From positions 1 through 24,000 of the forward strand of contig DUBC01000038.1 in NCBI GenBank assembly GCA_012960505.1: 24,000 nucleotides of DNA, in the 5' to 3' direction. The DNA comes from Verrucomicrobiales bacterium. Lineage in GTDB: Bacteria; Verrucomicrobiota; Verrucomicrobiia; Verrucomicrobiales; DEV007. Below the pieces are notes generated by a model. That model ran no database searches, was not told where the DNA came from, and saw nothing but the letters and a program-made list of their open reading frames with translations. This document shows positions 1-18,907 of this stretch, in pieces (the first letter of the stretch is position 1; each line of letters opens with the position of its first letter). Made by a program: the position numbers and the translations under genes.

Positions 1-1094
1 GGATCAGTTTTAGTCTCCTCGTACTCATCAATGTCCGTTAACCCGTCCCCGTCAAAGTCTCCGGTCCCTGAACCAGGACCAGGACCAGCACCGTTACCGT
101 TCAAATCATCAAGGTTATCAACGAGCGCTTCTTCCCAGGCATCGGGAATCCCGTCATTGTCGGCGTCGAGATCAAACTTATCAGTGGCCATACCGTTGCC
201 CAGGTCATCAAGGACAAGACCAATGCCCTCATCACCAAGATCCGAAAGTGCTCCTGGATTTTCCGGATCGAGACCGGACACAGGTGACCATGTGATTCCG
301 GTAACCTCACCGGCGTCGTCGTCATCGAAAAGAGTAAACAGTTCGGCCGCCTGGACGGGAGAATAGTCGAGGCCACTCAAACGAAGGTTACGAATCGCGT
401 TGACCTGATGGATGGATAACTCACCCGAGAAAACAAAGATATCATCGACGATTGCGTCGAGATCCTGGTTGTCGTATCGACCGATCTCAATTTCGAGCTC
501 TCCGGGCGCGTTGCCGCCATCTCCAGAACTGGAAATAGTGCTACTGATGATAGTGTCAGCAACAGCATCACCAACATAGAGTATCGCGCGGTTCTCTAGT
601 TTACTGAAAGTGGCTACCACATATTCCCAACTGCCCGGGGTCGGAACAATACCTGAATTGGTGTTACCACCACTTGCGATCGACCATTGAAGGTTGTGAA
701 GGTTGATACCCCGGTCCCAACCTCCATTGTCGATAGCCATGAATCCTGGAAAACCTTCCGCTGTTTCAAGGTTCACCCAACCGCCAAAGCTAACCTCTTC
801 CAACACGTCGGGGTTAGCATCAATCGGGATATTAATCGTTCCGCCAGTATTCCCTCCGCCATTGGCATCCGGGTCATTGATGTCAGCGCCACGGCCTCGA
901 AAGCCATCCGTAAAAGATACTTCGTCCGGGTTCTGGGTAGGCACCGCGGTGTTGTCGTTGCCAGAGACATCGTCATAGCTGTCCTCGAATGGGTAGTAGC
1001 CAAGAAGGCTTTGGCCTTTCAACGAAGGAACAAAAACAAAAACCGCCACAACGATAAAAATATTACTAAACCTATGAAAATTTAATTGTCTCAT
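1..1094 (-). CDS. Secreted LamG (concanavalin-A-like lectin/glucanase) domain protein with Asp-rich thrombospondin-type-3-like Ca-binding motifs. The C-terminus is cut by the window edge.
   Basis: This ORF is not in the supplied track because it has no stop inside the window. My manual minus-strand translation from the ATG at 1094-1092 stays open down to base 3 (364 codons). The N-terminus MRQLNFHRFSNIFIVVAVFVFVPSLKGQS looks like a signal peptide. The core (VSFGGWVNLETAEGFPGFMAIDNGGWDRGINLH, GSWEYVVATFSKLENRAILYVGD, LEIEIGRYDNQDLDAIVDDIFVFSGELS) fits the LamG/Laminin_G_3 pattern. The tail motifs DLDADNDGIPDAWE and DFDGDGLTDIDEYE are DxDxDG calcium-binding motifs. The + strand ORFs listed in this region are antisense shadows. 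Confidence 0.8.
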   Translation of the reverse strand, partial: MRQLNFHRFSNIFIVVAVFVFVPSLKGQSLLGYYPFEDSYDDVSGNDNTAVPTQNPDEVSFTDGFRGRGADINDPDANGGGNTGGTINIPIDANPDVLEEVSFGGWVNLETAEGFPGFMAIDNGGWDRGINLHNLQWSIASGGNTNSGIVPTPGSWEYVVATFSKLENRAILYVGDAVADTIISSTISSSGDGGNAPGELEIEIGRYDNQDLDAIVDDIFVFSGELSIHQVNAIRNLRLSGLDYSPVQAAELFTLFDDDDAGEVTGITWSPVSGLDPENPGALSDLGDEGIGLVLDDLGNGMATDKFDLDADNDGIPDAWEEALVDNLDDLNGNGAGPGPGSGTGDFDGDGLTDIDEYEETKTD

Positions 1095-1216: not shown

Positions 1217-3244
1217 TCAGTTCACTGGTAAGGTTTCGCGATATGGTCGTTTCTTCAAGTATCCTTCGCGTCGCTTCTGCAACAATCCCATTATTCTCTT
1301 ATCTTTCGCGGCCAATGCCAGTCCGATGGCGGCATCGACAGTTTTCACTGCAACGACAAAATCACCATTAGCGGCCTGTGCCGCAGCGAGAGTATCAAGA
1401 ACGCGCAAATTAGATTTTTTTGACGCCTTAGCACTTTGCTCCGCGAGCTTGAGAGCCTCGACCGGATTGTAGATCTCTGCATCGGTGTGAGTCGCCAGTA
1501 ACCAAGCCAATTCATTGATGACAAGCAGTGAATCGGGCTGCAAATTCAGTGCTTCACGAAACAATCGTTCGGCCTCAGTGGCCCGCCCCAATCGCACCAG
1601 CGAATGTCCATACCACAATTTGGCCATCGTGTCCTCAGGATTAATCGAGCTTAAGTAATGCAAGTGCCGGGCAGCGTTGACATGATCGTTAGTCTGAATC
1701 AATGATAGGCTAAGCATTTTCCGCGTATTATGCACCTGAGGTTGCTCGATCACCACTTTACGTAAATGTGGGAGGGCTTCGATATAGCGCTGCATGCGAA
1801 ACAAAAGCGTCGCTAGTTCGAGACGTGCGCGCGTTTTCTTGGAATCCAATTTTATCGCATGAGCGAAGGCCTTGATTGACTCGTTAAAGTTTTTTTGGAA
1901 GCGTAATTCAGAACCGACGATAAAGTATGACTCGGCGAGATCACGGTTCGCCCGCTCATCACCACTAACAGTGAACTGATCAAGATAATGCTTGGCAGCT
2001 TCTGGCTGTCCGAAGCTCATGAATTTGTCGAGCATACCCGTCGGAGTCGCTGGCCAGGGTCCTTCTATCCATGTTCCTTGGAAGTGAGAAGCTTCCACGT
2101 TTAAAACTTCCTTAGTCGCTCCAAGCAGAGCCACGTCAGTCGCTAATCGTTTAACCTCTACTGGTCCCTTGTAGATTACCGCTATACGACCCTTCGCGTC
2201 CAACAGGATACTACTGGGAACCGGCAACGATTCATATTTGTCGATCTGTGCACGGCCGGCCACTTCGAGCACTTCGAGGAAACCTGCGTCTGCAAGCCCC
2301 ACGGTGAACGGAAACTTTCTCTTTTCCAAGAATGGCTTCACAATCGCGCGTCGCTCAGCTACTGGATTGTCGAGTTTGTCGACGCTAAGTGCCAAAATAT
2401 CGATCCCGAGTTCACGTAGCGTCGCCTGTTTCTTTGTCCAACTGTCCATCTCGGCGATGCAGGGCGCACACCAAGTTGCCCAAAGATTAATTAGGCGTGG
2501 ACGCCCACGTTCGACGGCGATTGTTTTCTTACCATCAAGTTCGAGGTATCTGGCCTCAGGAAACGGTAGCCGCGAAGCCATCACTATACGTGCAGATTCT
2601 GATGGTAAGACAATATCCTTTGCCACCGGGATAGTTTGTAGAGGTTTAACTTTCGTCGGAACTTGCCATTTATGTGCCTTGCCAGATCCCTGTTCTACCA
2701 TGAAAAAATGACCCGGTTCGACTCCAGTAATCTCCTCACTCTTTCCGCCAGGCCAGAGAACTTTCAAACCTTTAATCTGCGCCCCATCGGCAATTCCGAA
2801 ATGAATCCACTTACTCGACTGTGCGAGGAAACCTTCACCGGCCCGCAAGGTAAGTATCTGCTTCGACGGTGTTCCTTCCAACAACAATTCAACGCGCGCC
2901 CCAACCGCATCACGATTGCAGCTGACGCCTATGAGTCTCACTGAAACAAAATTATTACGTGTCTGCGAACGGTTATGTTGCAGTCGTATCCGCGGTGCGG
3001 TGCGGTTACTAATCCAAAAATCAAGCTTACCATCGAAATCCCAATCGGTAACCGCGATGGCCCTTCCATCGTCCATCAGGTCAAGTCCACAAGCTCCTGA
3101 AATGTCAGCGAACTGGGGTTGCCCGCCACCAAGATTGAGAAATGCGCAATTGCGTTCAAACCCGCTGTAAGAACGTCCTTCTTCGAGCATCGTATTCAGT
3201 GCCTTCCACGCTTTACGATAAGCAAAGATTCTATTCAGATTCAT
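1217..3244 (-). CDS. UnbV/ASPIC domain, TlpA-like thioredoxin domain (WCAPC) and TPR repeats. Probably the C-terminal part of one CRTAC1-family protein together with 3290..5140.
   Basis: The 675-aa ORF starts inside an FG-GAP-like blade (AVTDWDFDGKLDFWISN). It continues with the UnbV_ASPIC pattern (NRDAVGARVELLLEG...RAGEGFLAQSSKWIHFGI...LKVLWPGGKSEEI). A redoxin motif LINLWATWCAPCIAEM follows, then a C-terminal TPR region (ALNLQPDSLLVINELAWLLATH). The ORF has no signal peptide of its own, although the thioredoxin module is of the exported TlpA type. Confidence 0.85.
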   Translation of the reverse strand: MNLNRIFAYRKAWKALNTMLEEGRSYSGFERNCAFLNLGGGQPQFADISGACGLDLMDDGRAIAVTDWDFDGKLDFWISNRTAPRIRLQHNRSQTRNNFVSVRLIGVSCNRDAVGARVELLLEGTPSKQILTLRAGEGFLAQSSKWIHFGIADGAQIKGLKVLWPGGKSEEITGVEPGHFFMVEQGSGKAHKWQVPTKVKPLQTIPVAKDIVLPSESARIVMASRLPFPEARYLELDGKKTIAVERGRPRLINLWATWCAPCIAEMDSWTKKQATLRELGIDILALSVDKLDNPVAERRAIVKPFLEKRKFPFTVGLADAGFLEVLEVAGRAQIDKYESLPVPSSILLDAKGRIAVIYKGPVEVKRLATDVALLGATKEVLNVEASHFQGTWIEGPWPATPTGMLDKFMSFGQPEAAKHYLDQFTVSGDERANRDLAESYFIVGSELRFQKNFNESIKAFAHAIKLDSKKTRARLELATLLFRMQRYIEALPHLRKVVIEQPQVHNTRKMLSLSLIQTNDHVNAARHLHYLSSINPEDTMAKLWYGHSLVRLGRATEAERLFREALNLQPDSLLVINELAWLLATHTDAEIYNPVEALKLAEQSAKASKKSNLRVLDTLAAAQAANGDFVVAVKTVDAAIGLALAAKDKRIMGLLQKRREGYLKKRPYRETLPVN

Positions 3245-3255
3245 TGATTCGTCGG

Positions 3256-3281
3256 GTGATTGCGACGAGACCCGCCGCCAC
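3256..3281 (-). promoter_or_regulatory. SECIS-like mRNA hairpin candidate downstream of the in-frame UGA at 3292-3290
   Basis: The minus-strand RNA reads UGA AGCUUUGCGUG GCGGCG GGUCU CGUCGC AAUCAC. Numbering the U of UGA as nt 1, GCGGCG (nt 15-20) pairs with CGUCGC (nt 26-31). That gives 6 bp including one G-U, closing a GGUCU loop. A possible 3-bp lower stem pairs GUG (12-14) with CAC (35-37). The core hairpin is at 3262-3278. Confidence 0.35.
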
Positions 3282-3289
3282 GCAAAGCT

Positions 3290-5140
3290 TCACAAGTCTC
3301 CGCTGTCCCCAGCGGAGATCATTCCATTAGCAACCACCAAGTCTTGTCTACCGTCATTATCTAGGTCAATAAAGTTCGAACTCCATGCCCAACGCGCCAT
3401 ATTGGCTCCGGATGACTGTGTCTTATCAAAAAAGGTTCCATCGCCCGCATTAAGGTAAACGGAGTTTCCGCGTGCGTGGCGGCGCGCTTGTGCTCTTGTC
3501 GCTTTATCTGCCCCTGGAAGGAACTGCTTCTGTAAGGTAATACGGTTACCTGCATTGGACCACATATTGGCAACATAGAGATCAGGATGACCGTCGTTGT
3601 TGTAATCTCCCCACGCTGCTGACATTCCCGGTCCGATGTCTAAAACTTTTGCCTGTTTGGCAATATCAACGAAAACATGCCTCCCCGGTTCGATTTCGTC
3701 ATTACGGAACAAGTTCTTACGACCGAAGTCGTTAGCGACATAGATGTCCTGATCTCCATCATTGTCAAAGTCCTCCCAAGCGCAGGCAAGACTGAAACGC
3801 TGATTATTAACGTCCATGCCAACCGCTTTGGTCACATCGTTGAAAATAAAATCTCCATCGTTTTGAAATAGGGTGTTCGGACCTCCGTTATTGGCATCGT
3901 AATACGGCATAGGAATTCCTAATGCGCCTTGCTCCGCCTTAATCGCACCACTAGCGTCCCGTCCACAGACATAAATATCCAGATCGCCGTCATTGTCGTA
4001 ATCTGCAGCCGCCATCGAATTCACCTGACCCTCACTTCTGAAACCTCCACGTGGTGTAAAGTGCCCTTTGCCGTCGTTTTCCATAAGAAAAAGCTTCCAA
4101 GCAAGACCTATCGCAAGATCTTGATCTCCGTCATTGTCTAAATCGATCAGTAGAGCACTACGACAAAAATCGAGTATATCGACACCAGATTCAGTCGAAG
4201 CGTCTCGGGCTGTGCCGTCAACCTGATGAATAAGTAGCCGGTTCGGAAGGCCCCCGGGCTGAAGAATATATACGTCATCAAGCTTGTCACCGTTGACATC
4301 ACCGACAATAACACCCTGCGCGCCAAGCAGATCAGCTACTAAACTCTTGTCCGAGCGGGCGCGCCAGTAATCAAAACTCATCGCCAGTTGCTCACGGTAA
4401 CTCGCCACGTCAGAAAGTAACGCGGGAGCCACATCAATAAATTCAATAACTCCATTTTTTCCTGGAGCCACTTCGCGGTAATCACTGACCCGAATTGAGT
4501 GTAATTTCGGCGGATCAGCAAGTATCCATTGACAGTGCCATGTCGATGTCACCTGTCTTCGTCCTTTGGTTGTTTTCCCATGCATCTCGAAGAGCATCTT
4601 GGTCAAGATTAGATCTCCCTTTACTTCCACATGCATGACCTTGAACTTTGCGCGCCTTTCAGATGCATTTTTCAGGACATTTGCCAAGTAATTCAATGCT
4701 TCGGTAAAGCCTTCAACACCTCTCCGAACGGATTTCTTCGTCTTTTCGCTATCGGTAACCGGACGACTAATACGCATGGATCCACCTTCATTGATGGTCT
4801 CAAGATTAGTGAAACGCAGTGGCCCACTAATGAACCCATCAGCCAGACGCACTTCGAGTTCCTTGGCTGCTAGGCCGTCAGGATGGACCAACAGCTTGGC
4901 TATCGATTTCATCTCAATCGATACAGCTTCGCTGAAACTTTCACTTTCCCAGCCATTCTCTCCAGGATCGATGTTAACAAACTCATCTACCAACCGCCGG
5001 TGGAATTCAAGTCCGTCCGATCTTCCGGAGACAGTTTCGCTATCTGCCCACACATTACCTATCACGCCTAATAACAGTGAAACCACTAGCACAATAGCAG
5101 TATCGAGCCATGATCGATTTGTTAGGCTCCTGCTATTCAT
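3290..5140 (-). CDS. FG-GAP/VCBS repeat protein with N-terminal signal anchor (N-terminal part of a CRTAC1-family protein)
   Basis: The 616-aa ORF has an N-terminal hydrophobic segment, WLDTAIVLVVSLLLGVIGNVWA. It carries repeated FG-GAP Ca-binding blades (GDVNGDKLDDVYI, DLDNDGDQDLAI, DYDNDGDLDIYV, DFDNDGDQDIYV, DYNNDGHPDLYV, DLDNDGRQDLVV). It ends at a TGA that is in the same frame as the next ORF. Confidence 0.85.
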   Translation of the reverse strand: MNSRSLTNRSWLDTAIVLVVSLLLGVIGNVWADSETVSGRSDGLEFHRRLVDEFVNIDPGENGWESESFSEAVSIEMKSIAKLLVHPDGLAAKELEVRLADGFISGPLRFTNLETINEGGSMRISRPVTDSEKTKKSVRRGVEGFTEALNYLANVLKNASERRAKFKVMHVEVKGDLILTKMLFEMHGKTTKGRRQVTSTWHCQWILADPPKLHSIRVSDYREVAPGKNGVIEFIDVAPALLSDVASYREQLAMSFDYWRARSDKSLVADLLGAQGVIVGDVNGDKLDDVYILQPGGLPNRLLIHQVDGTARDASTESGVDILDFCRSALLIDLDNDGDQDLAIGLAWKLFLMENDGKGHFTPRGGFRSEGQVNSMAAADYDNDGDLDIYVCGRDASGAIKAEQGALGIPMPYYDANNGGPNTLFQNDGDFIFNDVTKAVGMDVNNQRFSLACAWEDFDNDGDQDIYVANDFGRKNLFRNDEIEPGRHVFVDIAKQAKVLDIGPGMSAAWGDYNNDGHPDLYVANMWSNAGNRITLQKQFLPGADKATRAQARRHARGNSVYLNAGDGTFFDKTQSSGANMARWAWSSNFIDLDNDGRQDLVVANGMISAGDSGDL

Positions 5141-5269
5141 GTGTCGATCTTATACACACAAAGCATGCTTCGACAATAAAACTTGGAAACGTTGAAGAAA
5201 AAAGAAACAGTTTTTCTCTTAATCCACCTAACTTGTTAACTTGATAATTATATCCGTTAGTTAAGAAAA

Positions 5270-5352
5270 TACCAGGGACAAGAATCGAACTTGCACTCCC
5301 AAAGGGAACCAGATCCTAAATCTGGCGCGTCTACCAGTTTCGCCACCCTGGC
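5270..5352 (-). tRNA. tRNA-Leu, anticodon UAG, class II with long variable arm; CCA not encoded
   Basis: The minus strand reads GCCAGGGUGGCGAAACUGGUAGACGCGCCAGAUUUAGGAUCUGGUUCCCUUUGGGAGUGCAAGUUCGAUUCUUGUCCCUGGUA. The acceptor stem is GCCAGGG/CCCUGGU with a G1-U72 wobble. The anticodon stem is CCAGA/UCUGG with loop UU-UAG-GA. The variable arm stem is CCC/GGG and the T-loop is UUCGAUU. I folded this by hand. Confidence 0.85.
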
Positions 5353-5464
5353 TTTATTAAACTAATAACCAGTATTTAATCCTCTTATCGACAATGTCAA
5401 CCTCGACAAAGACACTTCGCTTCAAAATTAATTAATTTAATGAAGTTCTATTAAATGAACCACA

Positions 5465-5902
5465 TTACAAACATGCTGGACATTGACCGAAAAATTCGAG
5501 TTCATGGTATATGCCAGAGAAACCGCTACTCGCCATCACCTCTTTTTCCAGAGTCTCAACTGGACATTTAATACTCAGAGTCTCAATTTTTCCGCAATCA
5601 GTACAGACAAGATAATCATTATGCTCGCCAGGATAAGAAAAAATGTAATAAGCCGCTCGCTCTTGAAAACCCAACTTTCTAATAACACCCTTACCTACAA
5701 GCCTTCCTAACAATCTAAAGACTGTAGCACGATCACATTGATTGCAAAGCCCATCAGATTCACAAAGATCAGCCAATGTCTGAGGCTTCTGAAATGTTAT
5801 CAGCACTTTTAAAAGTTCACGCATAGCCTTGGTTCGGCGCAAACCTCGTTCACTGCATGTCTGTATTGCCCAGTCGAGGCGATCTTGGATCTCTTTATCC
5901 AT
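5465..5902 (-). CDS. Fur-family transcriptional regulator; Fur, Zur or PerR type not resolved
   Basis: The 145-aa ORF has a winged-helix region (ATVFRLLGRLVGKGVIRK). It has the two C-terminal CxxC pairs of the Fur-family structural Zn site (CTDC at 100-103, CPAC at 141-144). It is divergent from msrB. Confidence 0.8.
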   Translation of the reverse strand: MDKEIQDRLDWAIQTCSERGLRRTKAMRELLKVLITFQKPQTLADLCESDGLCNQCDRATVFRLLGRLVGKGVIRKLGFQERAAYYIFSYPGEHNDYLVCTDCGKIETLSIKCPVETLEKEVMASSGFSGIYHELEFFGQCPACL

Positions 5903-6047
5903 TTATTAGTACAATATGATTTATTTAGTATAATTACATGATTTTCAACAATATTAATTACATCAATTAAGTGTTCTTATGCCCAGTTGCACTCTTACCA
6001 AAATATCGCTAAACTTTAAGCAATAACTTTATAACTCATTTAACTAC

Positions 6048-6746
6048 ATGAAACCGCTCATTAGTATACTGGTAATATTAGTCTTAGGTATTTTTACATG
6101 TTCTTGTGATCATAGTGGAAACTCCACAACGAAAAAACCTGGAAAAACAAATTCCCCTGAAACGGAAAAACAGAATGTAAATGAAAAAGAAACTGAGCCA
6201 GTTACCATAAAAACTGAAACAGAAGTCGCACAAAAAAAACCCATTAAAAAACCGGAGCCAAAACAAATGCAAAAAAGGAAAGCATATGAGCCTCTCAGCG
6301 ATGAACAGCTAAGGAAAACTCTAACTCCACTACAATATCAAGTAACCAAACATGAAGCCACTGAGCGACCTTGGATTAATAAATTTGATGAACACTTCGA
6401 GGAAGGTATTTACGTATGTATTATTTCAGGAGAACCTCTTTTTTCATCTAAAGATAAATACGACTCGGGCTGTGGATGGCCAGCTTTCACCAAACCTATC
6501 AATTCAAAAGAAATAGTAAGCAGCACCGATTTTAAAATTGGTTACGCTAGGACCGAAGTCAGAGCAAAGACAGGAAACTCACACCTCGGTCACATTTTTC
6601 CAGACGGTCCAAAATCAAAGGGGGGGCTTAGATATTGTATCAATTCAGCCTCATTGCGTTTCATTCCTAAGGACAAACTCGCCGATGAAGGTTATGGCGA
6701 ATACGTTCAACTCTTCGAAGAAAATGTTAAGGAAATTCCTCAGTGA
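6048..6746 (+). CDS. msrB: Peptide-methionine (R)-S-oxide reductase MsrB with N-terminal signal/lipoprotein-like peptide and a Lys/Glu/Pro-rich linker
   Basis: The SelR/MsrB core is present: [18 protein letters not shown], the resolving Cys in [15 protein letters not shown], and the catalytic Cys in [16 protein letters not shown]. The first ~85 aa are [20 protein letters not shown] followed by a low-complexity KKP/ETE linker. Confidence 0.9.
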
Positions 6747-7042
6747 TTAATCCAGAGGGGATTCAGGCAATTGGTGAGGAAATCGCTATCCGGTGGGATA
6801 ACGGAACCGAAACGTACTGCTCAATGGAAAAGTTGCGCAAAGAATCCCCAAGCGCAGAGAATAAAGGAGAAACTGATCTCACAGGAAATAGGATAGGAGG
6901 TTGCGATCAGAAAACCTTTCCTGGAGTAAAAGTCACTGGTTGGGAAATGATTGGAGGTTATGCAATTCAATTCACCTTTAGTGATGGGCATAATACAGGA
7001 ATATTTAGTTACGATCTCCTCCAAGAACTTTCCTCTTCGTAG
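6743..7042 (+). CDS. DUF971 (gamma-butyrobetaine hydroxylase N-terminal-like) small protein
   Basis: The GTG start overlaps the msrB stop (GTGA). The pattern [12 protein letters not shown]...[13 protein letters not shown]...[23 protein letters not shown] matches my recollection of DUF971. Confidence 0.7.
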
Positions 7043-7050
7043 AAAATTAA

Positions 7051-7359
7051 CTATACATCTTCTTTCAACTCGTCTTCTTTCGCGGACTCCTTTTCCTCAA
7101 TATATACCCACTCATCTTGTTGCTCTGAGCGCAAAAAATAATTAATTAAAATCACAAGAGAAAAGCCGAACAGACCAAGCGTGATTTCCAAAAGTCCCGG
7201 AGTAAAAAATATTGGTAATATATTAGCGAAAGCGTCACGGATAAGCTCAAATGTCTGTCTGAAAAACAGCACACAGATAAGAATGGGCCCCACAAAAAAA
7301 CCTATCCAGAACGGCCCTAATCTCTTGCGTTTCTTGTTCGAAAAATTACCTGCCTTCAT
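7051..7359 (-). CDS. Small hypothetical membrane protein with acidic C-terminal tail
   Basis: The 102-aa ORF has a basic N-terminus (KKRKR) and two or three hydrophobic spans (GPFWIGFFVGPILICVLFF, LLEITLGLFGFSLVILINYF). I recognise no family. Confidence 0.55.
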   Translation of the reverse strand: MKAGNFSNKKRKRLGPFWIGFFVGPILICVLFFRQTFELIRDAFANILPIFFTPGLLEITLGLFGFSLVILINYFLRSEQQDEWVYIEEKESAKEDELKEDV

Positions 7360-7428
7360 TTTTTATATATAGATTCTAGCCGCATTTCACGCTTTGCAAT
7401 AAGATTAAGTTCATTGAGGATTATTATC

Positions 7429-8205
7429 ATGCACATTCATTTGATTCAGACGGATATTATTTGGGAGCGTCCTACTGAAAATAGAGATTCTCTAGAGAAA
7501 ATGTTTGGAGAATTAAATCCAATAGCTGGTGACATTATAGTCCTACCTGAAATGTATGCTACCGGGTTCAGCATGAACACTGCCCTTAGTGAAGAAAAAA
7601 AGCAAACAGACGCACCAAACACATCTTACCTAATACGTAAATCCAAAGAATTTCAATGTTGCGTAATAGGTGGTATAGCAATCCAAAGTAAAAACCTATT
7701 TCACAATGAGTCCGTCGCTGCATTTCCGAACGGGGAACTTGTAAGATATCAAAAAAATAACCTCTTCCCATTGGCAAATGAAAATCAAACCTATACAGCC
7801 GGTAAGGAACTAACGACCTTTGAATGGAATTCATGGATCATCGGTATGTCCATATGCTATGACCTTAGATTTCCTGAACTATATCGAGGACTTACCGCCA
7901 AAGGAGCTAATCTAATGATTAACATTGCGAACTGGCCAGTAGACAGAATTGATCATTGGGTAACCTTACTAAAAGCAAGAGCCATAGAAAATCAGAGTTA
8001 CATTGTCGGTGTAAACCGTACCGGCGCCGATCCTAACAGTAATTACAATGGAAGAAGCATGGCCATTGATCCCATGGGGAGCATTATTCTGGATGCAGGT
8101 GAACAGCATGGTGTATTTAGTACCACTATAGAAATCGGAAAAGTATCTTCATGGAGAAATAATTTTCCAGCACTTAAAAGCATACAAAACTCGAGCTATA
8201 TTTAA
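7429..8205 (+). CDS. Carbon-nitrogen hydrolase family protein (YafV/omega-amidase-like)
   Basis: The Glu-Lys-Cys triad context of the nitrilase superfamily is present: IVLPEMYATGF, RYQKNNLFP, MSICYDLRFPELYR, plus ARAIENQSYIVGVNRTG. The track starts at a TTG at 7414. The in-frame ATG at 7429 (MHIHLIQ) is the more likely start. Confidence 0.85.
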   Translation: MHIHLIQTDIIWERPTENRDSLEKMFGELNPIAGDIIVLPEMYATGFSMNTALSEEKKQTDAPNTSYLIRKSKEFQCCVIGGIAIQSKNLFHNESVAAFPNGELVRYQKNNLFPLANENQTYTAGKELTTFEWNSWIIGMSICYDLRFPELYRGLTAKGANLMINIANWPVDRIDHWVTLLKARAIENQSYIVGVNRTGADPNSNYNGRSMAIDPMGSIILDAGEQHGVFSTTIEIGKVSSWRNNFPALKSIQNSSYI

Positions 8206-10014: not shown

Positions 10015-12147
10015 TTATTTAATATCCTTAACCTCAAAGTGCCAATCTGTCCTCCACCGGTTCTCCTTATAGCGCCTGTAATCAAATGCTTTAATCCCAG
10101 CAGCAAAAGAAAGAGCCTTTCGAACAGAATTGGCAATTTCAATGAACTCATCACCTTGGGGTATAACAAATAGGTTAAAAGAATTCGCGATGATCTCATT
10201 ATTCTCTTCAACTAATGTTAGCCAGTCCCCAGCGAACTGCGTCAATGAATCAAATCTGACTTTCATTACCAGACCTGTAATTTTTTCTTCGTTAGGCTCA
10301 ACAATACTGGCCGCTATTTCTTCAGTAAATTTTTTGGAAGTACTCAAGAAAAACATCTCATCACTAATTGAAAGTGAGGGAAGGAAATCATTACTAACAA
10401 AAGGAAGCCCCATAAAATGAGTTGTTACATTCTTACCCTCACTGGACAATGAGTCAGGTAATTGAAATTCCTGACCCGGCTCCTGCCCTGGAACGACCGC
10501 CACAATTTCATTAATTGCCGGAACCAACTCATCCCAAGCTTCACTTAGGAGTTTACGATTTTTTACAGAATTAAAGACAGCAATTCTAGGTAATTTACCA
10601 TTCTTAATGAGTTCTGCCGGAAAACCAGGAACCTTTGGCATACTGCCATTAAGATCCACGACAATACCGCCCTCAGACCCAAGGCCATTGGCTACTTTGT
10701 TTTTCATGATTCCCCACAACTTAAGAATTTTCGGTGTAAGCATCTGGTCAAACATTGCAAACATTTGTCCTACATCTTCGTCACCTTGAATTTTTACAGC
10801 TGATGATCCGATAATATGAAGCAATTCTGCTATCGTTTCAGTAATCTCAATACCTGATGTGCGATACTTTGGATCCTCAGCTGCATTCAATAAAAAGAAT
10901 GCATCTTTAGGAGCATTCGGCGCCAATTTAAGAGATGAACTGGAATCTATTCTTGCAGCACTGTAACCTCCAACAGAAGCCCATTTTAATCCATTCTCAC
11001 GATACAAAACTCCCGCAGTCGAATCTATTGAGATATCTGCCATTTTCGTAATCTGAGTGCCAAACTTCTTCATGAGAGGTACCGCTTTAGTTAAATCAAT
11101 CCCTCCCTCTTTCATTGATTCAATTAATTTTACAGCTGAATCACTCATCGCCTTAAAGCTGTCCTTGGCATAAAAAGCCGTAAGGGCTGATTCCGATAAA
11201 TAATTATATGCCAAAATTTTCTTCTCCCCATAGCCCTTAGCAAATTCAAAATCAGATACGGCTAACAATGAATCCTCCTCGCTCTTAGAGAATTTGATAT
11301 GCTTATGGTCTGGACCAATTCCCACTATCACATACTCGTCAATAGATCCGAATGAGAATTCAACTTTTTTGGTATCAATTATCTTTTCCAATTTTGCAGC
11401 TAAATCCTCATCTCCAATTGCTTCGCGCATCTGCTCTCGGGCGCTATCATCAAAAACGTCCTTAGCCGCAACACTCCAAGACCTGAACTTCTGATCCCCC
11501 AGAACCTTAAACTCGGAAGTGAGGACAAATGGTGGCAAGTCAGCTTCTAGGGCAGATAATTGATTAACTAACTGCGCTGACATCCCTTTGCCCACCTTGG
11601 CTCCCGCTATAAATGAAGGTAACTGTAACTCCTCCATTAATTTTGCATTCTTACCTTCATCGGCTGATAGAATCTCCTTCAGAAGATCTCTCAGAAACTC
11701 CTCAGGATCAGGTTCATCAGCCCCGCCCAAACCAAAAGCAGAAAGCATCTGAGGACCAGCAACCTTTAATAAGACTTTATTATAAGCATTATTTATCTCA
11801 TTCAATTTTTCTAAATGTTCCGCTGTTCCATTACCAAAACTAAAGAAAGCATCCTCACCCACAAAATCCATTGCTGAACCCCAAGGCTCGGCCACTTCAC
11901 TCAAATCAAATCCTGATTCCAACTCAAATAATTCGATGAGTTTTTTCCACGTATTACTTTTACCAACCTCTTGTGTGAATTGCTCAAGATTGCGGAGTCC
12001 GAAAATTATCTCAGTGTCTTGAGGCATCCTTGAAACAAAACCGAATGGGGTTTTTTCTTTTGCGTCTTCCTGCGAATAGACAAAAGCTTGCCCAAACAAA
12101 TTAAGACAAATTACGGCTAATAAGGTTTTTACAATTTTATAGTTCAT
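10015..12147 (-). CDS. Hypothetical secreted protein, 710 aa, no recognisable domain
   Basis: This is a long uninterrupted ORF with signal peptide MNYKIVKTLLAVICLNLFGQAFVYSQ. It is acidic and Lys/Glu-rich, with no catalytic or repeat motif that I can name. Confidence 0.8.
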   Translation of the reverse strand: MNYKIVKTLLAVICLNLFGQAFVYSQEDAKEKTPFGFVSRMPQDTEIIFGLRNLEQFTQEVGKSNTWKKLIELFELESGFDLSEVAEPWGSAMDFVGEDAFFSFGNGTAEHLEKLNEINNAYNKVLLKVAGPQMLSAFGLGGADEPDPEEFLRDLLKEILSADEGKNAKLMEELQLPSFIAGAKVGKGMSAQLVNQLSALEADLPPFVLTSEFKVLGDQKFRSWSVAAKDVFDDSAREQMREAIGDEDLAAKLEKIIDTKKVEFSFGSIDEYVIVGIGPDHKHIKFSKSEEDSLLAVSDFEFAKGYGEKKILAYNYLSESALTAFYAKDSFKAMSDSAVKLIESMKEGGIDLTKAVPLMKKFGTQITKMADISIDSTAGVLYRENGLKWASVGGYSAARIDSSSSLKLAPNAPKDAFFLLNAAEDPKYRTSGIEITETIAELLHIIGSSAVKIQGDEDVGQMFAMFDQMLTPKILKLWGIMKNKVANGLGSEGGIVVDLNGSMPKVPGFPAELIKNGKLPRIAVFNSVKNRKLLSEAWDELVPAINEIVAVVPGQEPGQEFQLPDSLSSEGKNVTTHFMGLPFVSNDFLPSLSISDEMFFLSTSKKFTEEIAASIVEPNEEKITGLVMKVRFDSLTQFAGDWLTLVEENNEIIANSFNLFVIPQGDEFIEIANSVRKALSFAAGIKAFDYRRYKENRWRTDWHFEVKDIK

Positions 12148-14830: not shown

Positions 14831-15757
14831 TCAACTAATACATTTTTTTTTAATGGAACCTCGTGACCTGATCCAGAACCGGATTAACCCGTGAGTAGGG
14901 CTAAAGATCCAAGCCATAACAAAAAACATCATTCCACAAACGACCGTAGAAGGCGCGGTAGGAATTTTAAAGGCGACAGCTAAATGAACTCCCCCAATGG
15001 CACTCATAAAGGAATGCATAAGGCTAAATAACATCATCATCCAAAGCCTATCCGTTAAAAGATATGATGTAGCCGCTGGAAGGATTAACATCGCAATTAC
15101 CAAAATCGCCCCAACTGATGAAAATGCCGACACAACAACAACGGACAACATACACATCAAAAGATAATGAACTAGCCTAGGGCTAATTCCTATTGTTGCT
15201 GCCAAATTTGGATCAAAGGAACTTACAAGTAATTCCTTATAGAATAAAATAATCAAGCCTCCAACAATGAGAACGATCATGCCCATCGTCAAAGCCACTC
15301 CAGGCAATCCCATGATGATTTTTTCTTTTGAAGATAAGAAATCAAGTTTTCCAAAGAGAACACAATCTAAATCCAAATCAGTATGACTACCATGCAAGGA
15401 TATAAGGATTACGCCAATAGCAAACATTGTTGAAAAAGTAATTCCAATAGCAGCATCCTGTTTGATTCGAGTTCGAGAATGCAAGATCTCAATGATTAAT
15501 GTTGTCATAACTCCAGCCACCAAAGCGCCGATGAACATTGGAACCTCCGACTTTGAGTTAGTTAGAATAAATGCAATAGCTATGCCAGGAAGTACACTGT
15601 GACTAATAGCATCTCCGATCAAGGAAATGCGCCTTAAGACGAGATAATTACCAACTAGTCCACATGCTGCGGTAACAAAAAAAGCCATCGCTAATATAGG
15701 CCAATATGTCGAAGCATGTCTTTCCCAGGGCTCTATAAATATTTGATAAAACCTCAT
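14831..15757 (-). CDS. Metal ABC transporter permease (ABC-3 family, TroD/YtgD/MntD-like)
   Basis: This is a polytopic membrane protein with the ABC-3 signature region LIGDAISHSVLPGIAIAF. It is a paralogue of the upstream permease. Its ATG overlaps the upstream stop (ATGA). Confidence 0.9.
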   Translation of the reverse strand: MRFYQIFIEPWERHASTYWPILAMAFFVTAACGLVGNYLVLRRISLIGDAISHSVLPGIAIAFILTNSKSEVPMFIGALVAGVMTTLIIEILHSRTRIKQDAAIGITFSTMFAIGVILISLHGSHTDLDLDCVLFGKLDFLSSKEKIIMGLPGVALTMGMIVLIVGGLIILFYKELLVSSFDPNLAATIGISPRLVHYLLMCMLSVVVVSAFSSVGAILVIAMLILPAATSYLLTDRLWMMMLFSLMHSFMSAIGGVHLAVAFKIPTAPSTVVCGMMFFVMAWIFSPTHGLIRFWIRSRGSIKKKCIS

Positions 15758-17166
15758 ATACTTGCCCTTCCCGGAATAGGCTTACCGTGAGGATCTTCCT
15801 GTGGATAATCCAGATAAGACTCCAACTCAGAAACCTCTTCTTCACTTAAAAAATGCTCTACCTTTTCCGCGTCATCATGCACATGATCTAAAGCATAATT
15901 AGCTTCATTCGTCAGATAAAGTTCCCATAACCTATGATTACGAACAACTGATCTAGCTTTATCGAATCCATCGTCGGTCAGGCTGACATTATCACCTTCC
16001 AACTTTACTAAACCGGATCTTTGCATGTTTTTAATTTCTTTAACTAACCCCGCTATAGACATTTTCCGATGACTGGAAAGATCCTTCATTAATACTCTAT
16101 TGCCTGAACTTTCCAGCCCTTTACTTTCCAATACCTTATATATGGATTTAAGAGAATTTTCCTCACGAACTTTTTTGACACGAGCACGGTGCCTTAACCA
16201 CTTAGTAAATCTACCATACTTAGGTGAAAAAAGGTAAGCCATAGTAAAAATTGAACTCGCAGAAAGAACCATAAAAGGCCCAGTCGGTAGGTTACTTCCA
16301 AGAAATGAGAGGAATACACCAATGACGGCAGACAACATACCAACTCCCATCGCTATCCATAGCATGCGGTGCATACGATCGACCAGAAGATACGCTGTGG
16401 CCGCTGGCGTAATAAGCATCGCTGAAACTAAAACGACACCAACAGCCTGAAGGGAAATAACAATAGCGAAAGCCAAAAACATTTGGAATAAAGCTTCCAA
16501 AATCCTCACAGGAAAACCTATTGAAACCGCAAATTGTCGATCAAAGCTTATTGCAAGGAATGGTCGGTAGAGTAGACCAAACAGAATAACGGTCAAAATA
16601 ACAACGACCCCCATTGTTATAACATCATACCGATCTAGAACAGCGACATCGCCAAACAGATATGATTTAAGCCCCGTGATTTTTGAAGCTCCTTCGTTAT
16701 TCTGTATTATACGAATAAGACAGAGTCCTATAGCAAAAAATGAAGCGAGAACAATTCCAAGAGCCGCGTCTTGTTTGATGCGAGTTGTTCTTCGTATAGC
16801 TCCCACTAAAAGTGATCCTGCTAGACCTGCTAAAGTTGCTCCAATCAGTATAGCAACTGGATCCTTACTCATACTCCACAAGAATCCTAAAGCCACACCT
16901 GGAAGAACTGCATGCGAGATAGCATCCCCGAAAAGAGCCATTTTACGAACCACAATAAAACTTCCTAACAAACCACAAACAGCTCCAAAGAGAAGCGCCC
17001 CTATCAAACTCAAACGCAATCCACGATCTGACAGCGTAATGAATCTTCTCATCTGATCCCAAGGATTCGTCTCAACTATCTCACCTATACGTGCAGCGGC
17101 AGCTTCATTTACTGCCACAGAGAGAACTAACACTCCAAATATGATTATTGATCGAATCCTAGGCAC
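15754..17166 (-). CDS. Metal ABC transporter permease (ABC-3) fused to a C-terminal DtxR/MntR-family repressor domain (YtgC-YtgR-like)
   Basis: Residues ~40-320 form the permease (LFGDAISHAVLPGVALGF). Residues ~325-470 form a winged-HTH plus DtxR dimerisation/metal domain (MSIAGLVKEIKNMQRSGLVKLEGD, RNHRLWELYL, HDDAEKVEHFLS with the E-x-x-E-H motif, DPHGKPIP). Confidence 0.9.
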   Translation of the reverse strand: MPRIRSIIIFGVLVLSVAVNEAAAARIGEIVETNPWDQMRRFITLSDRGLRLSLIGALLFGAVCGLLGSFIVVRKMALFGDAISHAVLPGVALGFLWSMSKDPVAILIGATLAGLAGSLLVGAIRRTTRIKQDAALGIVLASFFAIGLCLIRIIQNNEGASKITGLKSYLFGDVAVLDRYDVITMGVVVILTVILFGLLYRPFLAISFDRQFAVSIGFPVRILEALFQMFLAFAIVISLQAVGVVLVSAMLITPAATAYLLVDRMHRMLWIAMGVGMLSAVIGVFLSFLGSNLPTGPFMVLSASSIFTMAYLFSPKYGRFTKWLRHRARVKKVREENSLKSIYKVLESKGLESSGNRVLMKDLSSHRKMSIAGLVKEIKNMQRSGLVKLEGDNVSLTDDGFDKARSVVRNHRLWELYLTNEANYALDHVHDDAEKVEHFLSEEEVSELESYLDYPQEDPHGKPIPGRASI

Positions 17167-17177
17167 TGCTAAATTAA

Positions 17178-17954
17178 TTAACTTTCCTCTTTTGCAAACT
17201 TTTCAGCAATCTCAGATAGAACAGTCAAGCGACCTCCATATGTCTTCTGCAATAGATCTCCAGTAAACACTTCTTCAGTTTTTCCGAAAGCAACGACTCT
17301 CATATTTAACAGAAGCATCATATCAAAATATTCACGGGCACTACCCAAATCATGATGAACAACAATTAATGTCTTTCCTTGATCTCTAATCTCTCTAAGA
17401 AGTTCAACAATCGCTGATTCCGTAGCCGCATCAACGCCTGCAAAAGGTTCATCCATTAAATATAGGTCACTTTCCTGAGCCAATGCTCTGGCAAGGAAAA
17501 CACGTTGCTGCTGACCTCCGCTCAAATTTGCTATCTGCCGTTTTCCGTATGCCTCAAGGCCCACTTTTTTTAATGCGGCATAAGCCTTTTCTTTTTCTTC
17601 TTTCCCTGGCCTTCGGATGAGCCCAAGTCTTCCGTAACATCCCATAAGAACAACATCAATCACACTAACAGGAAAATCCCAGTCAACGGATTCACGTTGG
17701 GGCACATACCCGACTCTCGAAATATTCTTTTTTAAATCTTCACCAAATACTTTTACCCACCCATCAGAGCATTGAACTAATCCCATTACTGATTTTATCA
17801 GCGTAGATTTACCTGCTCCATTCGGTCCAACGACCCCAACCATACTCCCAGCAGGAACCGCCATATCGACTCCATATAGTACTGGTCTCTTTTGGTAAGA
17901 AACCGTTAGATCATGTATTTCCAGAGCAGGAACCTCAACATCCTCAGTAGACAT
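17178..17954 (-). CDS. Metal ABC transporter ATP-binding protein (TroB/YtgB/ZnuC-like)
   Basis: Walker A is GPNGAGKST. The ABC signature is LSGGQQQRVFLARAL. Walker B is LYLMDEPFAGVD, and the H-loop is VVHHD. Confidence 0.92.
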   Translation of the reverse strand: MSTEDVEVPALEIHDLTVSYQKRPVLYGVDMAVPAGSMVGVVGPNGAGKSTLIKSVMGLVQCSDGWVKVFGEDLKKNISRVGYVPQRESVDWDFPVSVIDVVLMGCYGRLGLIRRPGKEEKEKAYAALKKVGLEAYGKRQIANLSGGQQQRVFLARALAQESDLYLMDEPFAGVDAATESAIVELLREIRDQGKTLIVVHHDLGSAREYFDMMLLLNMRVVAFGKTEEVFTGDLLQKTYGGRLTVLSEIAEKFAKEES

Positions 17955-17959
17955 AGCAA

Positions 17960-18907
17960 TTATTTAAGAGCTTCCACAATAGTGTTTATATTATGCTTTA
18001 GCATTCCTTGATAAGTCCCTAAGTCATATTCCTCATCATTGGACTTTTCTATGTCGCCAGGCTCCCCCATAGCGTCAGAGAACAATTCCCCACCAACCTT
18101 AGCGCCCGAATCCTCCGCAATACTTTTAATTGCCTCAGGAGAAACACTAGACTCGACAAAAATTGATTTAATCTGATTTTCTTTTATAAAATCGACAAGA
18201 TTGACCCTTTCAGCAATTCCTGCCTCTGTTACCGTAGAAATACCTTGAAGCGCAACTACCTTGAATCCATAAGCTTCACCAAAATATTCAAAAGCATCAT
18301 GACTTGTAATCAGAATTCTAGACTCCTCAGGCAGTGACTCTACTCTGGATCTTGACCATTGATGTAAATCTCGAAGCACTTCAATCAAGTGATCGCCTCT
18401 TTCTCTGTAATAAGATGAGTTCTGAGGATCTGCATCACTGAGCTCTTTAACAACCAAAGGAACACAACCTTCCCATATCTCTGCATTACCCCAAATATGG
18501 GGATCAGGATGTGATTTCTGACCTTTGAGTTGATTCTCAGAAACAGTGGATCCAAAATCAATCCCTTCTTGAGTTTTAAGATCAGATGTCATCTGACCCT
18601 CAAGAAAAAGTCCATTATAAAAAATAAGATCGGCTTCACTTAAAGCGATACCATCACTCGGTATTGGCTCATAAAGGTGAGGATCCACTCCCGGTCCCAT
18701 TAAGCCAGTGAGTTGAACTTTATCGCCGGCTATTTGTTTAACCATATCAGTTATCATTGTTGTCGTTGTCACAACAGAAATTCGGGCATCTTCATCCATA
18801 GATCTATAATCCGAACTGCAACTCGAAAAAGCTGTCAATGCCAACAAAATAACAATTCTGTATATTAGTAATGACCTAACAAGCGCTTGTGTAACCAAAT
18901 TGGGCAT
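17960..18907 (-). CDS. Metal ABC transporter substrate-binding lipoprotein (cluster A-I, TroA/YtgA-like)
   Basis: The signal/lipobox-like N-terminus is LLALTAFSSC. Ligand contexts are GVDPHLYEP, HPDPHIW, ITSHDAFEYFGEAYGF and LFSDAMG. It has no His-rich loop, so it resembles TroA rather than ZnuA. Metal specificity cannot be decided from sequence. Confidence 0.9.
   Translation of the reverse strand: MPNLVTQALVRSLLIYRIVILLALTAFSSCSSDYRSMDEDARISVVTTTTMITDMVKQIAGDKVQLTGLMGPGVDPHLYEPIPSDGIALSEADLIFYNGLFLEGQMTSDLKTQEGIDFGSTVSENQLKGQKSHPDPHIWGNAEIWEGCVPLVVKELSDADPQNSSYYRERGDHLIEVLRDLHQWSRSRVESLPEESRILITSHDAFEYFGEAYGFKVVALQGISTVTEAGIAERVNLVDFIKENQIKSIFVESSVSPEAIKSIAEDSGAKVGGELFSDAMGEPGDIEKSNDEEYDLGTYQGMLKHNINTIVEALK

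Follow-up and report, generated by a model that had tools for sequence, protein, structure and literature searches.

The question raised by this locus is whether a TGA codon in the middle of a long reading frame is a stop or is decoded as selenocysteine (Sec). The window, meaning the whole stretch of DNA that was analysed, comprises positions 1 to 24,000 of contig DUBC01000038.1 (assembly GCA_012960505.1, Verrucomicrobiales bacterium) and is 24,000 nucleotides (nt) long. On its minus strand, two open reading frames (ORFs) in the same frame are separated by this single codon. It is very probable that window positions 5140..1217 (minus strand) are one gene for a 1307-residue extracytoplasmic selenoprotein, with the UGA read as Sec; we infer the identity of this residue from comparative evidence. 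Bacterial Sec decoding depends on a hairpin in the coding sequence, which brings SelB with Sec-tRNA(Sec) to the ribosome, as in Escherichia coli fdhF.

Gene layout and predicted product

From the ATG at 5140, an ORF of 616 codons (5140..3293) is closed by the TGA at 3292-3290. Past it, the frame stays open for 690 codons up to the TGA stop at 1219-1217, and read-through gives 1307 amino acids. The junction reads ...NGMISAGDSGDL-UGA-SFAWRRVSSQSPDESMNLNRIF.... This layout had been described in a first-pass annotation made from the window's letters, and it was confirmed. The domain content proposed there (FG-GAP repeats upstream; UnbV_ASPIC and a WCAPC thioredoxin-like domain downstream) was recovered by Pfam, with FG-GAP_3 matching upstream of the TGA in five stretches (2.1e-36, 124.8 bits, above the cut-off). 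The features of the gene are as follows.

3293..5140, minus strand: N-terminal 616 codons, with the signal, an N-terminal domain of about 230 residues and the FG-GAP blades (Pfam)
5140-5042, minus strand: signal peptide or signal anchor MNSRSLTNRSWLDTAIVLVVSLLLGVIGNVWA, before D (N-terminal sequence)
3290..3292, minus strand: in-frame UGA, predicted Sec, residue 617 (TGA at the homologous column in 84 sites)
1217..3289, minus strand: C-terminal 690 codons and stop, with the SFAWRRV insertion, the last propeller blade, UnbV_ASPIC, Redoxin and tetratricopeptide repeats (TPRs)
3262..3278, minus strand: hairpin GCGGCG/GGUCU/CGUCGC of the bacterial selenocysteine insertion sequence (SECIS) type, nt 15-31 counted from the U of UGA
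3146..3148, minus strand: Cys665 (in ERNC), candidate resolving cysteine (Cys in 87% of Sec forms versus 2% of non-Sec forms)
2908-2711, minus strand: UnbV_ASPIC domain (Pfam, 50.5 bits, above the cut-off)
2563-2153, minus strand: TlpA/ResA-like Redoxin (Redoxin/AhpC-TSA) domain (Pfam, 40.8 bits versus a cut-off of 26.6)
2459..2473, minus strand: WCAPC motif (Cys891, Cys894) of the thioredoxin-like domain (CxxC in 74 of 75 Sec forms)
about 1990-1310, minus strand: TPRs (domain search)

The likeness of the Redoxin module to TlpA and ResA is at the domain level only: the NCBIfam models scored far under their cut-offs (TlpA 47 bits versus 230, ResA 46 versus 170), the match to NF041054 was weak, and no NCBIfam model covered the 1307-residue product. 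Many orthologues carry a lipobox (LxGC) at the N-terminus in place of the signal seen in the window. TlpA/ResA-type domains function outside the cytoplasm. With the signal-like N-terminus, the lipoboxes of the orthologues and the TlpA/ResA-type domain, the product is therefore predicted to be extracytoplasmic. Given read-through of the UGA, an FG-GAP propeller and UnbV_ASPIC lie in one polypeptide, which places the product in the CRTAC1/ASPIC-UnbV family.

Conservation of the UGA across relatives

The codon was surveyed in the best 80 of at least 498 genome matches and the best 80 of at least 575 metagenome matches. Among the 80 species-representative genome loci, 78 had TGA at exactly the homologous column; with a second paralogue in five loci and the window itself, this makes 84 TGA sites. 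The other two loci had sense codons, TGC (Cys) in locus L017 and TCG (Ser) in L044, and neither TAA nor TAG was found. By their labels, the TGA loci belonged to Verrucomicrobiota (about 39), Planctomycetota including Phycisphaerae (about 34) and Acidobacteriota (3). One TGA-bearing metagenome-assembled genome (MAG) was labelled Dehalococcoidia and one Proteobacteria, and these two may be binning artefacts. The TGA-bearing species-level relatives reached down to about 52% identity.

The identical 3924-nt gene, including the TGA, was present in four independent assemblies, namely three NCBI MAGs (GCA_015659695.1, GCA_039830315.1 and GCA_029936055.1) and one JGI metagenome; its N-terminal half was matched exactly on 18 contigs. 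Tandem paralogues occurred in L004, L005, L007, L063 and L067, which had two sites each, every site with its own UGA and hairpin. Up to four UGA genes per MAG were counted among the best 80 loci (isolate 3300054698_94: L004 twice, L018 and L026).

Within the Sec clade, a sense codon occurred only in L017:6685 (Cys) and L044:6685 (Ser), both from Candidatus Polarisedimenticolia. These two were nested within the clade in a neighbour-joining tree, retained the CxxC motif and had mismatched hairpin stems, a pattern consistent with secondary loss of Sec.

Coding continuity across the UGA

The residues encoded past the TGA, S-[FVM]-[FYAW]-W-R-[QR]-V-V-[SA]-Q-S-P, matched the segment D-L-x-S-F-F-W-R-Q-V-V-A-x-S-P of uninterrupted homologues. 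With the junction region as query, about 85 proteins homologous to the N-terminal half were retrieved (58-99% identity; Verrucomicrobiales, Akkermansiaceae and Planctomycetes), and all of them ended at ...DL. Homologues of the C-terminal half began at differing, non-homologous Met residues; no restart codon was conserved among the relatives, the first Met lying 1-531 residues past the TGA.

An AlphaFold model of the uninterrupted homologue P0012 (mean predicted local distance difference test score 80.5, predicted template modelling score 0.82) was used to locate the UGA column. The column (N377 in the model) fell in an insertion of about 60 residues that was modelled with low confidence and is arranged as loop, short helix, loop and helix. 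This insertion sits between propeller blades, and one further complete blade is encoded past the UGA, so the propeller spans the codon. The first-pass statement that the downstream ORF begins inside a blade was thus not borne out by the model. Its best solved match was murine CRTAC1 (9etn_A, E 3.5e-27, template modelling score 0.69), followed by fungal GlcNAc-binding propeller lectins.

The hairpin downstream of the UGA

The hairpin GCGGCG-GGUCU-CGUCGC, noticed in the first-pass annotation, was located at window positions 3278..3262 (nt 15-31). Its stem pairs nt 15-20 with 26-31, the loop GGUCU lies at 3272-3268, and 11 nt separate the UGA from the stem. Published criteria for bacterial SECIS elements (bSECIS; PMC13188914, Fig 2A) are a loop of 3-9 nt, a stem of 4-16 bp, G in the first two loop positions, 16-37 nt from the UGA to the loop and a minimum free energy (MFE) of at most -7.5 kcal/mol. 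The window hairpin agrees with all of these (loop 5 nt, stem 6 bp, loop-initial GG, spacing 17 nt, MFE -9.4 kcal/mol), and an MFE of -7.5 kcal/mol or lower was obtained for 57 of the 61 family hairpins that were folded.

In an ungapped alignment of 61 sites, 98.6% of the stem cells were paired. Compensatory changes were seen at pair 18-28 (AU 24, GU 23, CG 11, GC 2) and at pair 20-26 (AU 48, GC 12), the window being of the GC type at the latter. Its peptide at this point is RRVSS instead of the usual RQVVS; two amino acids have changed and pair 20-26 is kept. The covariation score was reached by none of 500 shuffles, slid registers gave 11-69% pairing, and RNAalifold independently recovered the identical stem.

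As a control, 80 metagenomic homologues of the uninterrupted type were used, 76 of which have Asn at the column and the same SFFWRQVV peptide. All six stem pairs were present in 78 of the 84 UGA sites and five in the remaining 6, whereas the Asn homologues had 2-5 of the six and never all. Codon choice differed between the sets: the Sec forms fix GUC-GUG-UCG downstream of the UGA. The first Val codon was GUC in 75/84 UGA sites and a mix of GUG, GUA, GUC and GUU in the 76 Asn homologues; the second was GUG in 72/84 versus mixed; and the Ser/Ala codon was UCG or GCG in 80/84 versus mostly GCC. By these alignments, the RNA element formed by the hairpin is conserved and specific to UGA-bearing genes, with no counterpart in the Asn homologues. 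An Rfam scan of 3150-3350 gave three matches far under the gathering scores (best E 0.28) and no SECIS family.

The minimal SECIS of E. coli fdhF, GGUUGCAGGUCUGCACC, likewise occupies nt 15-31 in the coding sequence and presents an apical GGUC with G and U exposed. A near-superposition of the two hairpins had been proposed, apart from a missing bulge. The shared nt 15-31, the GGUC and the missing bulge were all confirmed, but the GGUC is shifted by 1 nt, lying at nt 22-25 in fdhF and 21-24 in the 5-nt loop of the window. Under a strict definition of the fdhF type (nt 15-31, GGUC with G23/U24, bulged U17), the window hairpin falls outside, owing to this shift and the absent bulge. It is predicted to work like the fdhF SECIS and yet to be a separate element; the host proteins of the two are unrelated.

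Selenocysteine machinery and codon usage

When E. coli SelD, SelA and SelB were searched with tblastn against all fetched loci, hits were obtained in L024 only (Verrucomicrobiales bacterium CPC23, NYWG01000027.1, 951-8834). This locus contains a family member with its UGA at 2835. Directly 3' of it, on the same strand, are selD (5083-6111), selA (6111-7445) and selB (7475 to the end of the locus), each scoring above its NCBIfam equivalog cut-off. The arrangement resembles an operon of a selenoprotein gene with selDAB. The examined stretch of this contig yielded no tRNA-Sec, and ARAGORN detected none in the window or in any fetched locus. Complete selA/B/C/D sets are recorded for two planctomycete genomes, P1 and P2, in which family candidates are listed (Kim et al. 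2016, PMC4807772).

Genome-wide reassignment of UGA was also considered. In the window, TGA ends five other coding regions, each with little or no in-frame extension past it. UGA is an ordinary stop for these regions, and reassignment was therefore excluded.

Cysteine residues associated with the UGA

Residues were compared between 63 full-length Sec forms and 56 non-Sec forms. Residue 617 was Sec in all 63 of the former and Asn in 54 of the latter. Cys665 was present in 87% of Sec forms versus 2% of non-Sec forms, which have Val or Ile there, and Cys891, the first Cys of the CxxC motif, in 98% versus 4%, with Ser or Ala as the replacement. The corresponding values were 100% and 70% for Cys894, and 70% and 0% for Cys203. 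The CxxC motif was intact in 74/75 Sec forms, the single exception having masked bases. It was missing (SxxC or similar) in 72/74 non-Sec forms, the two exceptions being the Cys form of L017 and the Ser form of L044.

As U617, C665 and C891 are features peculiar to the UGA-bearing clade, a relay from Sec617 through Cys665 to the CxxC motif is suggested. Whether these residues form a redox relay (Sec617-Cys665-Cys891/Cys894) on a flexible arm of the lectin-like propeller is evenly poised; the arrangement may be correct.

Alternative explanations

A full-length, selenium-free product would be made if read-through of the UGA were programmed, with the hairpin stimulating a near-cognate or suppressor tRNA to insert Trp, Cys, Gly or Arg. 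Room for this is left by the comparative nature of the Sec assignment, by the lack of sel genes within the window and by the Asn, Gly and Ser that homologues tolerate at the column. Such decoding is nevertheless very unlikely, given a hairpin that fits the bSECIS criteria and the fdhF position and loop, the selD-selA-selB genes adjoining the family member in L024, and the full Sec machinery of P1 and P2. The UGA also strictly co-occurs with the new C665 and C891, as expected of a redox-active Sec, and among the sense replacements is Cys (L017), the residue nearest to Sec in chemistry.

Every public annotation calls two genes here, and other coding regions of the window use UGA as a normal stop. 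If the TGA were a true stop, the hairpin would be a terminator, a coupling device or a regulatory element, and the two polypeptides would assemble after translation. This is highly improbable: a conserved start is lacking past the TGA, the peptide encoded directly behind it is conserved and agrees with that of uninterrupted homologues, all 84 sites use TGA and no other stop, and the last propeller blade is encoded beyond it. The C-terminal part, moreover, has no signal peptide of its own, although it carries a domain of the extracytoplasmic type. Nothing but the stop codon itself speaks for a pseudogene created by a strain-specific nonsense mutation, or for an error of sequencing or assembly, and the probability of these is negligible. 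The gene is identical in four independent assemblies and its N-terminal half lies on 18 contigs, with TGA at the column in 78/80 species-level relatives; nonsense mutation and assembly error are therefore excluded. These alternatives (a fresh nonsense mutation, two genes, an assembly error) had been raised in the first-pass annotation and were rejected on the strength of the four assemblies and the missing restart. Its selenoprotein reading gained support from the UGA at 84 sites, the covarying UGA-specific hairpin and selD-selA-selB in L024.

Several points weigh against the main reading. Selenium incorporation is a prediction, and the redox-relay model is built entirely from residue co-occurrence. 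The 24-kb window contains neither sel genes nor tRNA-Sec. Taken alone, the window hairpin is unexceptional (MFE -11.5 kcal/mol, z = +0.68 versus shuffles), so its significance comes entirely from the comparative data; it also does not have the bulged U of the fdhF SECIS. Outside the clade, the homologues have Asn (76 metagenomic sequences from soil) or Gly, Ser, Met, Asp or Glu. Cys occupies the Sec column in one form only (L017), and Asn, Gly and Ser are atypical counterparts for selenoproteins. An alignment of this column had been proposed at the outset, with Cys counting for a selenoprotein and an unconserved, non-Cys residue against it; it returned both, the former in L017 and the latter elsewhere. 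The selenoprotein reading is left standing by the non-Cys distant homologues because the UGA-bearing clade is old and diverse.

Proposed mechanism

With the UGA at 3292-3290 decoded as Sec, the hairpin 11 nt past it (nt 15-31, apical loop of the GGUC type) would recruit SelB-Sec-tRNA(Sec) in an fdhF-like manner. The product would be exported by its N-terminal signal, which is a lipoprotein signal in many orthologues. The mature protein would consist of a CRTAC1-like FG-GAP beta-propeller, UnbV/ASPIC, a TlpA/ResA-like thioredoxin domain (WCAPC) and TPRs, with Sec617 carried by a flexible segment that is inserted between the penultimate and the last propeller blade. Sec617 would be the catalytic redox residue, Cys665 would resolve it, and the tethered CxxC domain would recycle the pair, drawing electrons from a membrane system of the CcdA/DsbD type. 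The lectin-like propeller would bind the substrate.

Gene neighbourhood

Neighbourhood clustering of 81 loci revealed no conserved operon partner. The neighbours that recurred loosely were LamG/TSP3 proteins (16/81 loci), then PSCyt/PSD1, PA14, sulfatase and DUF1501 proteins. Directly downstream of the selenoprotein gene in the window is a gene for a secreted LamG/TSP3-repeat protein (1-1094, minus strand, continuing past the window start). Plus-strand ORFs at 31-366 and 687-1085 are probably antisense artefacts of it.

On the other side, a tRNA-Leu gene (anticodon tag; 5270-5352, minus strand) separates the start of the selenoprotein gene from a Fur-family gene. The Fur-family regulator (5465-5902, minus strand) is divergent from a gene for MsrB (SelR domain) in the region 6048-7042 (plus strand). 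MsrB has an N-terminal extension of about 90 residues, and its gene overlaps a DUF971/GBBH-like_N gene by 4 nt. The Fur/MsrB cluster lies 5' of the selenoprotein gene, just past the tRNA-Leu gene, and may point to a setting of oxidative stress.

Two further genes of the window were recorded. An unusual permease-regulator fusion, an ABC-3 metal-transport permease with a C-terminal iron-dependent repressor domain (Fe_dep_repr_C), is encoded at 15754-17166 (minus strand) and belongs to a ZnuA/ABC_tran/ABC-3 operon (14831-18907). An ORF of 710 amino acids without a Pfam match (10015-12147, minus strand) is conserved in all four assemblies with the identical selenoprotein gene.

Relation to known systems and significance

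The recoding mechanism is the standard bacterial one, and the family is essentially uncharacterised and widely mis-annotated. Family candidates from two genomes appear without discussion in Table S9 of a 2016 PLoS One paper (PMC4807772). Like the window gene, these have the same domains in two adjacent annotated genes split by a UGA; three of the four have a predicted SECIS, and the closest uninterrupted match has Gly at the homologous residue, as do some homologues here. That listing is supplementary and has no family-level analysis, whereas cross-phylum conservation, covariation, the association with CxxC and Cys665 and the adjacency of selDAB are presented here. Neither a 2022 review nor a 2026 catalogue, which lists 119 families of prokaryotic selenoproteins, includes the family. 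In full-text literature on selenoproteins with FG-GAP, ASPIC, UnbV or CRTAC1, no main-text description was found, and the literature that was searched yielded no characterisation of bacterial CRTAC1/ASPIC-UnbV proteins.

An FG-GAP propeller followed by UnbV/ASPIC is shared with cartilage acidic protein 1 (CRTAC1, 9etn) and with bacterial CRTAC1-family/ASPIC-UnbV proteins; CRTAC1 itself has no Sec, thioredoxin-like domain or TPRs. Other extracytoplasmic selenoprotein families of the thioredoxin fold resemble the window protein in having reductase modules of that fold. In those families Sec replaces a Cys within CxxC, whereas the WCAPC of the window is all-Cys and the Sec lies about 274 residues upstream, in another domain. 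Large, exported selenoproteins with several domains are uncommon; the family would be such a case, and its Sec aligns to Asn, not Cys.

Every public record that was found splits the gene into a "VCBS/FG-GAP repeat protein" and an "ASPIC/UnbV" or "TPR" protein, and many database entries are therefore truncated. The split affects analyses of domain architecture and of pangenomes in Verrucomicrobiota and Planctomycetota. The co-occurrence of Sec, Cys665 and CxxC offers a testable handle on bacterial CRTAC1/ASPIC-UnbV proteins. In many marine genomes the family is often present in 2-4 or more copies, and it may be a major selenium sink there.

A wider reading, possible if somewhat doubtful, is that these proteins are a widespread and uncatalogued family of cell-surface or periplasmic selenoenzymes in marine bacteria of the Planctomycetes-Verrucomicrobia-Chlamydiae (PVC) group and in Acidobacteriota, with a redox centre (Sec617, Cys665, Cys891-x-x-Cys894) built anew on the lectin-like CRTAC1 propeller. 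If this were true, Sec would have arisen at a position that is Asn in non-redox relatives, not from a catalytic Cys. The family would then have gained a new extracytoplasmic activity on a propeller-bound substrate, for example one that is glycan-linked or of the sulfur, selenium or peroxide type, and the selenoproteomes of these phyla would be substantially underestimated.

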